Shown piece by piece: positions 41,444-45,344 of a DNA stretch of 64,000 nt. Location: NCBI GenBank assembly GCA_965219085.1, contig OZ244720.1, positions 1,376,001-1,440,000 on the forward strand, given 5' to 3'. The notes beneath the pieces are model-generated. The model made no database searches and was not told the origin of the DNA. It saw only the letters and a list, made by a program, of their open reading frames with translations. Positions within the stretch are counted from its first letter, which is position 1. The number at the start of each line of letters is the position of its first letter. The stretch is from Dehalococcoidia bacterium. Lineage in GTDB: Bacteria; Chloroflexota; Dehalococcoidia; UBA2979. The translations under genes and the position numbers were made by a program.

Positions 41444-43078
<1,635 letters not shown>

Positions 43079-43153
43079 CACCCCTCGGTCCATCGGGGAG
43101 GACACGGTTCATATTCTGCGCGGGCCGGGGGTGTGTCAACGAGGGACGGGAGC

Positions 43154-43756
43154 CTACAGGTAGTCAGTGTGGTCTCGCACTGACAGGTAGTCGTCGTAGT
43201 TGAGGTAATGGACCCACGTCGTTCGCTCCCCGCGGGCCGTCAGCGCGCGATTAGATCCTGGCCCGCGCCATGCCGCAGCCTCAGCTCGCGGGTATCGTTG
43301 AAAGCGATCAGTCACGAATTCGAGCGCGGGCCTGAGGTCGGTGTCGGTCGAGAAGATGACGCCGACGTCATAGCTGCGATCGATGGCGCCGGCTATGAAG
43401 TCGATCGCGAGCTCTACATCCACGCCCTTCTGCTCCGCGCGCCTCTGCGGCCAATCGCCGGGGTAGCGGAGAGTTCTCGGCACGACCACCGCGCCCAAGC
43501 GCTCCCATGCCTCACACTGACGCATGTGCGCGCCGTACGTCTTCGGGTCCTTGGTCGAGTCGGGGCGGCCTGTGTAGATTCGTACCTCACCGAGTACGCG
43601 AGTGTGGTCTGGCGGAGGTCGACTACAGATGAGTTCGCCGAGCGCCATCGGGTCGACCTGGCCGTCGGTGTGGTAGCGGGGTCCGGTATGGAAGCTCCGT
43701 TGAGCTCCCATGTAGGCATTCTGTGCGTCGATGAACAGAACAACCCGGTCGGGCAT
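43154..43756 (-). CDS. NYN-domain (PIN-like) ribonuclease
   Basis: LFIDAQN, QKGVDVELAID, STDTDL.PA conserved acidic catalytic residues. Confidence 0.9.
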   Translation of the reverse strand: MPDRVVLFIDAQNAYMGAQRSFHTGPRYHTDGQVDPMALGELICSRPPPDHTRVLGEVRIYTGRPDSTKDPKTYGAHMRQCEAWERLGAVVVPRTLRYPGDWPQRRAEQKGVDVELAIDFIAGAIDRSYDVGVIFSTDTDLRPALEFVTDRFQRYPRAEAAAWRGPGSNRALTARGERTTWVHYLNYDDYLSVRDHTDYL

Positions 43757-43774
43757 TGGGCACCACTCAACGAA

Positions 43775-43838
43775 TAACCCCGCCAGTTCACCACCCGGAG
43801 GCAGTGGACGGCGGGGAGGATTAGCCCCTTGGGGCACC
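43775..43838 (-). ncRNA. Putative structured RNA/leader upstream of the NYN gene
   Basis: Small hairpin at 43824-43835 and long hairpin CCCCGCC...GGCGGGG at 43778-43816, downstream of a TTGACA promoter. Confidence 0.4.
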
Positions 43839-43841
43839 GAC

Positions 43842-43885
43842 AGTCTCCGAACCAAGTCGGCGGTTTGTCAAGTTGGATCTGACAA
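43842..43885 (-). promoter_or_regulatory. Promoter TTGACA-N18-GAGACT with an overlapping inverted repeat
   Basis: Consensus -35 at 43866-43871; TTGTCA-N9-TGACAA palindrome at 43865-43885. Confidence 0.55.
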
Positions 43886-44057
43886 CAACCCCTCGGCTCG
43901 GCCTTGAACTTCTGCACATCCAACGTTACACCACCGGATGGTTTGCTTCGGGCGCGACCTCCTCTCGCCTCCCCGTTTCTTGCTGGCGACCCACCACCCC
44001 CGGTACGCTGACCTGACCCGCGGCAACCACGCCACGAGGCGAGGGGAGCACGCACCC

Positions 44058-45344
44058 ATGCCGTCAGCCGACGCCATCCGCCCCGAGATCAGCACGCTCG
44101 ACAATGGCCTGCGCATCGTCACCACCTCGATCCCGACGGCGCAGTCGGCGAGCACCGCCTTCTTCGTCGGCGTCGGCTCGCGCGGCGAGGACCGCCGCAA
44201 CAACGGCGTCTCCCACTACCTGGAGCACATGCTCTTCAAGGGCACGGAGCACCGCCCCACCGCCCCGGAGATCAGCCAGGCGATCGAGGGCGCCGGCGGC
44301 GCGCTCAACGCCTACACCAGCCGCGAGCTCACCTGCTACTGGAACAACCTCCCGTTCGAGCGCGCCGAGACCGGCATCGAGGTCGTCGCCGACATGCTCC
44401 AGCACTCGCTCCTCGCCGCTGAGGAGATCGACCGCGAGCGCACCGTCGTCCAGCAGGAGATCCGGCGCGGGCACGACACGCCCGCCGCGCGCGCGGGCGA
44501 GCTAATGGTGCAGGCCGTCTACGGCGACCAGCCCATCGGCTGGCCGGTGACCGGCTCGCTCGAAACCGTCGGCGCGCTACAGCGTGAGGACTTCACCACG
44601 CACGTCGAGCGCTTCTACACCGCCAGTAACTCCGTGCTGTCGGTCGCCGGCAACATCGAGCACGCCTGGGTCGTCGACACCGCGGCGCGTCACTTCGAGG
44701 ACCTGCGCGGCGGCGACCCGGACCCGCATGCACCGGCCGTACACGGCCCGCCCGAGGAGCGCGTGATCGTCGAGGAACGCGAGATCGAGCAGACCAACCT
44801 CGCGCTGTCCGTGCAGGCGCTGTCGCGCCGCGACCCGCAACGCTACGCGCTGGAGCTGCTGCACACCGTCCTCGGCCGCGGGATGTCCTCGCGGCTGTTC
44901 AAGGAGGTGCGCGAGCGGCGCGGGCTGGCCTACTCGGTGGGTTCGAGGATCGCGCGCCACCGCGACATCGGCATGTTCTCGGTCACCGCCGGCGTGACCG
45001 CGGACGACCAGGAAGAGGCGCTGGAGGTGATCCTCGGCGAGCTCGGCCGCGCGGCCAGCGAGCCAGTGTCCGACGAGGAGCTGCAACGCGCGCTCGACTT
45101 CGCCACCGGCACGTTCCGGCTGAGCCTGGAGACGCCGATGTCGCTCGGCCAGCGTTTCGGCGAGCAACTGCTGCAAGACGGCGAGCTCGAGTTACCCACG
45201 GACACCGTGGCGCGCATGCAAGCCGTGACCGCCGGCGACGTGCAGGCGGTCGCACAACGCGTCTTCGCCGACCGTGCGTTCGCGCTCGCGGTCGTCGGCC
45301 CGTCGGCGCCCGCCGACCGGCTCGAAGAGCTGCTCGCGGTCTGA
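44058..45344 (+). CDS. M16 family (pitrilysin-like) peptidase
   Basis: HYLEH (HxxEH), NAYTS.E, SSRLFKEVRERRGLAYSV. Confidence 0.95.
   Translation: MPSADAIRPEISTLDNGLRIVTTSIPTAQSASTAFFVGVGSRGEDRRNNGVSHYLEHMLFKGTEHRPTAPEISQAIEGAGGALNAYTSRELTCYWNNLPFERAETGIEVVADMLQHSLLAAEEIDRERTVVQQEIRRGHDTPAARAGELMVQAVYGDQPIGWPVTGSLETVGALQREDFTTHVERFYTASNSVLSVAGNIEHAWVVDTAARHFEDLRGGDPDPHAPAVHGPPEERVIVEEREIEQTNLALSVQALSRRDPQRYALELLHTVLGRGMSSRLFKEVRERRGLAYSVGSRIARHRDIGMFSVTAGVTADDQEEALEVILGELGRAASEPVSDEELQRALDFATGTFRLSLETPMSLGQRFGEQLLQDGELELPTDTVARMQAVTAGDVQAVAQRVFADRAFALAVVGPSAPADRLEELLAV

Follow-up and report, generated by a model that had tools for sequence, protein, structure and literature searches.

A predicted autonomous hairpin RNA linked to NYN-domain nuclease genes of Chloroflexota and Actinomycetota

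A 64,000-nucleotide (nt) stretch of the genome of a Dehalococcoidia bacterium (Chloroflexota; assembly GCA_965219085.1, contig OZ244720.1, positions 1,376,001 to 1,440,000; hereafter the window) carries on its minus strand a gene for a predicted NYN-domain ribonuclease, directly preceded by a promoter-like sequence, a stable hairpin and a U-rich tail. The comparative analysis presented here suggests that this promoter-hairpin-U-tail unit is an autonomous small-RNA gene standing beside the nuclease gene, and that the two constitute an undescribed pair of RNA and nuclease. The analyses show that the RNA structure is conserved, that the unit has the sequence signals of an autonomous gene, that its linkage to NYN is near-obligate and that a protein partner is absent. 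With moderate confidence, the autonomous hairpin RNA can be regarded as a specific partner of the NYN protein, probably an antitoxin-like inhibitor, with read-through of the RNA terminator setting the dose of NYN.

Conservation of the RNA unit

Homologues of the NYN protein were sought in 41 related genomes, whose records are titled Dehalococcoidia or Tepidiformaceae; a protein match was obtained in 22 of the 41, and a cut-off of E < 1e-20 delimited the subfamily. All 26 homologous loci with at least 41% identity (the weak matches L019-L022 being left out) share the same layout within 200 nt upstream of the gene, namely a TTGAC-type box, a -10 box, the sequence cAAUCCU, the CCCCGCC...GGCGGGG hairpin and a U-rich tail. 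The inner stem varies among orthologues and paralogues yet stays paired, as in ACUGCC/GGUGGU, GCCGC/GUGGC, GCCCC/GGGGC and UGCACC/GGUGC. From 24 local sequences a covariance model (R1) was made and applied to a wider genome set, comprising the best 80 of 520 loci encoding relatives in a scan with one genome per species. Directly upstream of NYN it matched at 68 of the 80 loci with E up to 1e-3, and with the limit relaxed to E up to 1 the count rose to 73. A second covariance model (R2) was built later, and motif alignments of 96 and of 73-89 members were assembled.

Stem statistics were taken from the 96 R1 matches at E up to 1e-3, which form 94 distinct rows. Stem cells are paired in 93.1% of cases against 76.6% in shuffles, and none of 500 shuffles attains the observed value; with the 3' partner slid as a control, pairing reaches at most 54%. 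Compensatory, two-sided changes occur in 12 of the 15 stem pairs (217 cells). The alignment of the 96 matches was fitted to the covariance model, and a plain MAFFT alignment was used for comparison; on the latter, RNAalifold returned an identical helix, with 5 of 11 pairs compensated. Wobble cells comprise 87 GU/UG against 23 AC/CA, which indicates that the fold lies on the sense strand.

Signals for the start and end of transcription are conserved together with the stem. A -35-like box and an nAnnnT box satisfy the promoter rule in 69 of the 94 distinct matches, and in the remaining 25 a -10-like box was seen by eye at equal distance. The end of the -10 box lies a median of 12 nt from the stem, and 89 of the 94 matches have at least five T among the first nine bases past it, in genomes of about 55-70% G+C. 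From this spacing and the U-tail, a transcript is expected to run from about 6 nt before the stem to just after it. The sequence of stem, bulge and flanks is conserved across Chloroflexota, Actinomycetota, Sorangium and an Elusimicrobia genome, and NYN alone among the genes is conserved along with it. In the window's own 3.3-Mb genome R1 finds three full copies only, located in the window, before an NYN paralogue at 2,180,000 and, as an orphan, at 384,273. By these comparisons, the promoter-hairpin-U-tail unit is not a product of chance.

A conserved hairpin at this place might still be a constitutive attenuator and 5' stabiliser read by the host machinery only (RNA polymerase, Nus factors, 5' exonucleases), which would lower the level of a potentially harmful nuclease without being recognised by NYN itself. 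The unit does have the form of a strong intrinsic terminator, and its position at the 5' end, together with the mini-hairpin present in the window, would shield that end. Ordinary terminators, however, do not conserve stem sequence, pyrimidine bulge and 5' flank across phyla. The only three full copies in the genome are all tied to NYN loci, and units placed convergently or divergently to NYN, described below, are left unexplained, which makes a purely host-read element quite improbable.

Placement of the unit relative to the NYN gene

Loci were sorted by layout with a script and with R2 matches, both in the genome set and in a metagenome set of 80 loci obtained from a scan with alignment A6; across the two sets, 154 loci have usable flanks. 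The unit lies upstream of NYN on the sense strand in 76 of the 80 genome loci and 58 of the 80 metagenome loci, forming the NYN 5' leader in 134 of the 154, and is placed elsewhere in 14. Units convergent to NYN, downstream of it and nowhere else, were found at two loci of the genome set (L071 and L086) and six of the metagenome set; divergent units upstream of NYN at none and four, respectively (L165, L198, L218 and L219); and units found solely downstream of NYN, on its own strand, at one locus in each set (L114 in the genome set; L154). The convergent units abut or overlap the NYN stop (L071, L086, L157, L167, L170, L183, L199 and L204), and at several of these loci the stop codon is within the complement of the U-tail. 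The 14 non-canonical units keep a U-tail and a -10-like hexamer (TAnnnT; CAGACT in L086) that ends about 10-21 nt before the stem; the exception is L219, the weakest match (17 bits), which has neither.

R2 returned no match at one locus of the genome set (L072) and at 11 of the metagenome set, six of the latter having no upstream flank. Variants of the unit are visible by eye at L072, L224 and L229 and, in divergent position, at L210, and no variant was seen by eye at L175 and L222. NYN genes of the subfamily without the unit number at most 2 of 154. Judged by its own promoter and terminator signals, the unit is an autonomous small-RNA gene, more than a leader.

The common arrangement also invites a simpler explanation, in which the unit is only a cis-acting autoregulatory leader: the hairpin would attenuate NYN transcription, NYN would bind or cut its own message, and the short RNA would be a by-product of a nuclease whose real targets lie elsewhere. 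Besides the predominance of the leader position, this explanation is compatible with the spacer before the start codon, which is too short for another promoter, with a sequence-specific conservation that NYN recognition could account for, and with the presence of GC hairpins before the starts of other NYN subfamilies of the same genome and of an NYN gene on E. coli plasmids. It does not accommodate the 14 loci where the unit is kept in positions that make a role as sense leader impossible, nor the ten units, treated in the next section, that outlast the NYN frame, and it is considered unlikely, though deserving of serious attention. Because a cis-only leader would be functionless in the 14 displaced positions, a trans-acting RNA partner is ranked first.

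Loss of NYN with retained RNA units

In the 41 related genomes, which represent the window's genus, the unit stands beside all 30 NYN genes of the subfamily. Among the 40 units found there at E up to 1e-3, ten have no NYN frame, and all ten were inspected. Remnants of NYN codons are left at three of these loci (L128, L137 and L139). At the pyrG site, which the cassette occupies in the window, genome G014 retains the unit directly before the pyrG promoter, and genome G012 has a unit of 66.5 bits with about 30 remnant NYN codons between pyrG and the M16 peptidase gene (L128, G012:C1:2113900-2115150). At a second site, G016 and G014 show different internal deletions and the window's own genome has the unit alone; at a tRNA-Arg site the unit stands alone in four genomes. 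Three units are present in G014, which has no member of the NYN subfamily.

The orphan in the window's own genome (G000:C1:384273-384333, minus strand; locus L121, 1300-1800) has a promoter, hairpin and U-tail and scores 38 bits; its two neighbours are an NfeD/ClpP-like gene and a gene whose product ends in DEDLAREL. The 3' end of the upstream gene is copied in a direct repeat of about 13-17 nt, which flanks this orphan as well as the NYN remnants in G014 and G016 (L137 and L139), but not the intact cassette of G006 (L011). As a side observation, the unit at L128 has as its convergent neighbour a different NYN-family gene (224 amino acids, YVDGFNLYY type, Pfam NYN E 3.5e-8).

If the RNA is the antidote to a toxin, one would expect the nuclease to be lost and the RNA kept rather than the other way round, and this is the pattern found. 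The RNA could instead assist NYN, as its cofactor, guide or scaffold, or could be cut by NYN from a precursor into a functional product, without inhibiting it. Protein-only RNase P is an example of an enzyme in which NYN domains act, the 7-bp stem with its 5' leader and 3' tail loosely resembles a tRNA minihelix, and tight linkage in any orientation would be expected of a positive partner too. Such a role, however, predicts that NYN genes without the RNA are harmless and occur, and that RNA genes without NYN decay, and the reverse is seen (2 of 154 against 10 of 40). We accordingly hold a positive partnership to be highly improbable.

Proposed function of the pair

The preferred reading of an RNA that restrains the nuclease can be formulated as a two-part cassette, consisting of an autonomous small-RNA gene and the gene of a seemingly catalytically intact NYN (PIN-like) nuclease. 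In an RNA of about 55-70 nt, some 6 nt of single strand (with the mini-hairpin as an extra in the window) would precede a single conserved hairpin with its bulge and a U-rich tail for termination. In the common layout, to which the window belongs, NYN has no promoter of its own and can be transcribed only through read-through of the RNA terminator; from this dependence, much short RNA and little NYN message are expected. The hairpin RNA would be, as we infer, a specific ligand of the NYN protein and would most likely keep the nuclease inactive in the manner of an RNA antitoxin, so that the pair may form an addiction or abortive-infection module.

Several points weigh against this reading. The short RNA and its termination are predictions from sequence signals, a look-up of RNA runs for positions 43100-44000 of the window having returned none, and in the 134 loci where the unit is simply the 5' leader a cis-only role explains the arrangement equally well. 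The stem is nearly palindromic as DNA, and the NYN message in convergent and divergent layouts could therefore contain a very similar hairpin, its bulge shifted to the opposite side. Of the relatives of the L086 and L071 genomes, only 3 of 41 and 2 of 41, respectively, have the gene, and none of these carriers is close. The orphan units may be recent deletion scars under no selection, which would give an equal picture, and the covariance search of the 41 relatives at E up to 1e-3 detects intact orphans only. The RNA is a single hairpin, unlike the repeat-derived pseudoknot of known RNA antitoxins. Finally, in the only test found (preprint 10.1101/2024.01.29.577857), HEC-09, a candidate with a related NYN domain, did not protect against phage. 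A metagenome scan with the L071 protein alone returned no relative.

The cassette in the window

The promoter, palindrome, mini-hairpin, stem-loop, tail and NYN start codon described in the initial annotation of the window all lie where it had placed them; positions below are those of the window, and all of these features are on the minus strand. The -35 box TTGACA (43866..43871), read from the sequence, has TTGAC-like counterparts at an equal relative place in homologues. It is separated by an 18-nt spacer from the -10 box GAGACT (43842..43847), of the nAnnnT type, which in orthologues reads GACACT, GATACT or GAGACT. A palindrome TTGTCA (43885..43880)-N9-TGACAA (43870..43865) overlaps the -35 box; it is absent from orthologues. 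Its candidacy as an operator was rejected on this account, and a function of the palindrome has no support because orthologues do not keep it. A generic promoter and terminator scanner called no site at the window's unit, because GAGACT agrees with TATAAT at three of six positions and the stem contains a bulge; the case for the function of the unit therefore rests on conservation.

The small RNA is predicted to span about 69 nt (43769..43837), with ends deduced from promoter and U-tail, and scores 65.4 bits against the model. Its predicted fold has an energy of -36.4 kcal/mol (z -3.79), and none of 200 shuffles is as stable. At the predicted transcript start lies a 12-nt mini-hairpin, GCCCCAAGGGGC (43824..43835), which is specific to the window's clade: L010, L011 and the paralogues lack it, and orthologues have other self-complementary sequences in its place (GCTCCGCAAGGAGC, ACCCCTCCGGGGGT and GCCCCGTCAGGGGC). 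A single-stranded linker follows, UAAUCCU (43817..43823; consensus cAAUsyU), conserved in alignments A2 and A4. The main stem-loop CCCCGCC-GTCCAC...GTGAAC-T-GGCGGGG, 39 nt (43778..43816), is defined by fold and covariation and consists of an outer 7-bp stem CCCCGCC/GGCGGGG with a bulged U on the 3' side, a junction GUCC/GAAC with a C-A mismatch, the covarying inner stem and a loop UCCG. By its sequence it is a terminator-like hairpin of about -30 kcal/mol, continued by the U-rich tail TTATTCGTT (UUAUUCGUU; 43769..43777), the terminator-like end of the short RNA. The spacer between tail and start codon (43757..43768) is non-conserved, differs in length and frame among orthologues and is too short for a second promoter.

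A longer NYN protein starting at TTG 43855 and reading through the hairpin was considered and rejected, because hairpin-to-start distances of orthologues differ in frame (21, 24, 26, 25, 27 and 17 nt) and the region covaries as RNA. Mimicry of 5S rRNA was likewise rejected, helix I of the genome's own 5S rRNA (GUCCUGGUGG/CCGCCAGGAC) being unlike the motif. A likeness to the 16S decoding site or to a tRNA minihelix, noted by eye, consists of similar letters in the non-conserved inner stem.

The NYN gene (43154..43756) encodes 200 amino acids, with its ATG at 43756, 21 nt past the stem, and its stop codon at 43156..43154. The open reading frame matches Pfam NYN (PF01936) with E 3.6e-9 and 37.7 bits against a cut-off of 24.2. 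An AlphaFold model computed from a 62-sequence alignment has a pLDDT (predicted local distance difference test) of 96.1, and its best fold matches are the NYN/LabA-like structure 2qip (E 6e-6) and the NYN domain of MARF1; a sequence search of solved structures gave a weak match to 2qip only. The acidic residues D113, D138 and D140 are invariant, and D10 is present in at least 90% of the 62 sequences. On the strength of the model and these residues, the nuclease looks catalytically intact. A defence-system library yielded only a partial match, to the PADLOC candidate HEC-09 (residues 106-153, E 2.1e-8); the NCBIfam library gave no match, and a phage collection contained no protein match.

The gene pyrG lies downstream of NYN, and a divergent M16 peptidase gene upstream. 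The TTGACA box of pyrG (43134-43139, minus strand) begins 14 nt past the NYN stop; it is also present in relatives without the cassette (G008, L131), so pyrG is apparently transcribed independently of NYN. A frame of 189 amino acids runs antisense to NYN (43208-43777, plus strand), with similar antisense frames in 54 of the 80 loci, and is read as the shadow of a G+C-rich gene rather than as a gene. An Rfam 15 search of 42800-44400 at E up to 10 gave three matches only, all well below gathering score and none in the RNA unit: mir-512 (43320-43383, plus strand; E 0.0024, 29 bits against a gathering score of 94), on the opposite strand of the NYN coding region and read as chance; Cis52, inside the NYN reading frame; and sR53, in the M16 gene.

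Distribution and mobility

The best 80 loci come from Chloroflexota, many Actinomycetota, Sorangium cellulosum, one Elusimicrobia and one Burkholderiales assembly. Actinomycetota carriers include Microbispora, Herbidospora, Frankia, Kineosporia, Modestobacter, Geodermatophilus, Microbacterium, Bifidobacterium, Actinomyces and Mycobacteriaceae assemblies. Orthologues stand in differing gene neighbourhoods, and no conserved protein partner accompanies them: apart from NYN and the antisense shadow frames, the most common neighbour family is present in only 5 of 80 loci, in agreement with the initial annotation, which had noted no adjacent protein antitoxin. The closest relative, G008, lacks the cassette at the pyrG site, where the gap between pyrG and the peptidase gene is 204 nt against 828 nt in the window. 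Genomes contain up to three copies.

At 6 of 7 actinobacterial plasmid loci, in Miniimonas, Clavibacter, Pseudonocardia, Dietzia, Rhodococcus and Rothia, the unit precedes a more distant NYN gene (24-31% identity), and no unit was found at the Mycolicibacterium alvei plasmid locus; neighbours of the plasmid loci are par, rep, mob or methylase genes. Patchy, multi-copy and plasmid-borne, the cassette shows behaviour typical of a mobile or accessory gene, as far as its genomic distribution can tell. Two further observations concern its multiplication (L043, L044 and L041, upstream of NYN; L082): the unit occurs as tandem duplicates that each include the first few NYN codons, and one Demequinaceae contig has three successive NYN genes, every one of them accompanied by a unit. 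Cassettes or orphan units lie about 100-250 nt from tRNA genes at L133, L134, L138 and L140 (tRNA-Arg CCU) and at L183 (tRNA-Gly CCC), which hints at insertion hot spots.

Mobility raises the question of whether the hairpin might act at the DNA level, as a place where a small mobile cassette recombines or inserts, with an NYN protein that acts on DNA. The cassette does occupy differing sites in close relatives, often adjoining tRNA genes, and at one locus the repeat of about 13-17 nt surrounds the cassette or its remnant. A DNA element, however, would not be expected to keep promoter and U-tail in constant orientation to the hairpin, or to favour wobble pairs of the sense strand by 87 to 23. 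A target duplication at the window cassette was looked for and rejected, the sole flanking repeat measuring 9 nt, within chance; none was seen by eye at L011, and no linked recombinase was found among the neighbour families. The probability of such a DNA-level role is regarded as remote.

Hairpins before NYN genes are not confined to this motif. Two other NYN subfamilies of the window's own genome, L032 and L035 (G000:C1:1352022, plus strand, and 1345655, minus strand), have a promoter-like box and a GC-rich hairpin immediately before the start (GGGCCACGGG...CCUGUGGCCC and GGCCCCCGUCAGGGGGCC), unrelated to the motif in sequence. A family of 3.5-kb mobilisable E. coli/Salmonella plasmids carries an NYN gene (L124, E. 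coli plasmid NZ_CP080176.1), with an unrelated terminator-like hairpin, AAAAAGGCCTGCATATGCAGGCCTTTTT, about 20 nt before its ATG (locus positions 1390-1440).

Comparison with known systems

The initial annotation had likened the locus to type III toxin-antitoxin loci and to abiF-associated RNA loci. The abiF RNA motif is an Rfam family located upstream of AbiF-type abortive-infection genes, and it resembles the present unit as a conserved structured RNA before a defence-type gene with a suspected antitoxin role. The link to abiF did not hold, since neither abiF nor any other Rfam 15 family matches the RNA unit and the protein family differs; on 15 diverse loci, an Rfam 15 search (abiF included) at E up to 0.1 returned tRNA only. 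The initial annotation had also recognised no characterised pairing of this kind, and this view is borne out: the pair is absent from Rfam 15, and no RNA partner of bacterial NYN genes was found in the literature searched, subscription-only papers being outside the search. Covarying structure upstream of NYN homologues, on which it had made its proposal depend, is present in several phyla. An RNA acting in its own right, as it had envisaged, is favoured by the 14 displaced units with promoter and terminator and by the ten NYN-less units against 30 of 30 NYN genes with a unit.

Self-regulation offers another point of reference. The E. coli rne and rnc leaders and the Regnase-1 stem-loop are examples of nuclease autoregulation through the nuclease's own message. 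The present element is similar in being a structured part of a nuclease message that the nuclease possibly recognises, but it has its own promoter and terminator and persists apart from, or without, the nuclease gene.

The likeness to type III systems (ToxIN, CptIN, TenpIN) stands in part. Shared features are the order of promoter, non-coding RNA, Rho-independent terminator and endoribonuclease, the lack of a protein antitoxin, occurrence on plasmids and chromosomes with a patchy distribution, and a terminator that should fix the RNA-to-toxin ratio. Type III loci are defined, in the available text of one source, by a ToxN homologue, a preceding Rho-independent terminator and, before that, a tandem repeat array, and the classic families are placed there mainly in Firmicutes, Fusobacteria and Proteobacteria (PMC5086642). 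In the present locus the terminator between RNA and nuclease gene is there as far as sequence signals go. The nuclease, by Pfam and fold search, has an NYN/PIN-like and not a ToxN/AbiQ fold, and its RNA consists of one bulged hairpin that also serves as the terminator, whereas type III RNAs are 34-36-nt tandem repeats processed into pseudoknots; Tandem Repeats Finder gave 0 rows at 43100-44100, and no direct repeats were found at 43700-44060. The RNA gene here can, moreover, be convergent to or divergent from the nuclease gene. The locus may function like a type III system, yet it falls outside the type III families, because both the ToxN fold and the repeat array are lacking.

With type II systems of the VapBC/PIN kind the cassette has in common a small metal-dependent PIN-like nuclease, a mobile multi-copy nature and abundance in Actinomycetota, going by the available text of a 2017 survey (PMC5499597); it differs in that no protein antitoxin gene is adjacent and the constant neighbour is an RNA gene. 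According to the same available text, bacterial PF01936 NYN proteins include groups of unknown function for which functional studies are lacking (PMC5499597). LabA-like NYN proteins (NYN.COG1432) and HEC-09 share the Pfam domain PF01936 with the present family, 2qip being the best fold match here. HEC-09 has an N-terminal helix-turn-helix-like part, and only its catalytic core matches the window NYN, over residues 106-153. The available descriptions of HEC-09 and LabA-like NYN proteins mention no RNA partner.

Implications

It is tempting to extend the argument from this family to others. Solo NYN (PF01936) genes with promoter-proximal terminator hairpins might represent a new, phylum-spanning class of RNA-antitoxin systems in which the terminator hairpin doubles as the antitoxin and the toxin dose depends on read-through. 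Its best-defined member would be the present Chloroflexota/Actinomycetota family, and the hairpins of other NYN subfamilies, in the window's own genome and on E. coli plasmids, would mark sister families. This generalisation is put forward tentatively.

The motif merits an RNA family entry. Bacterial PF01936 NYN proteins are very common, and one NYN family can be approached experimentally through its conserved RNA, which at about 60 nt is easy to synthesise. If the RNA proves to be an antitoxin, RNA-antitoxin systems would be extended to PIN-like nucleases and to the Actinomycetota and Chloroflexota.

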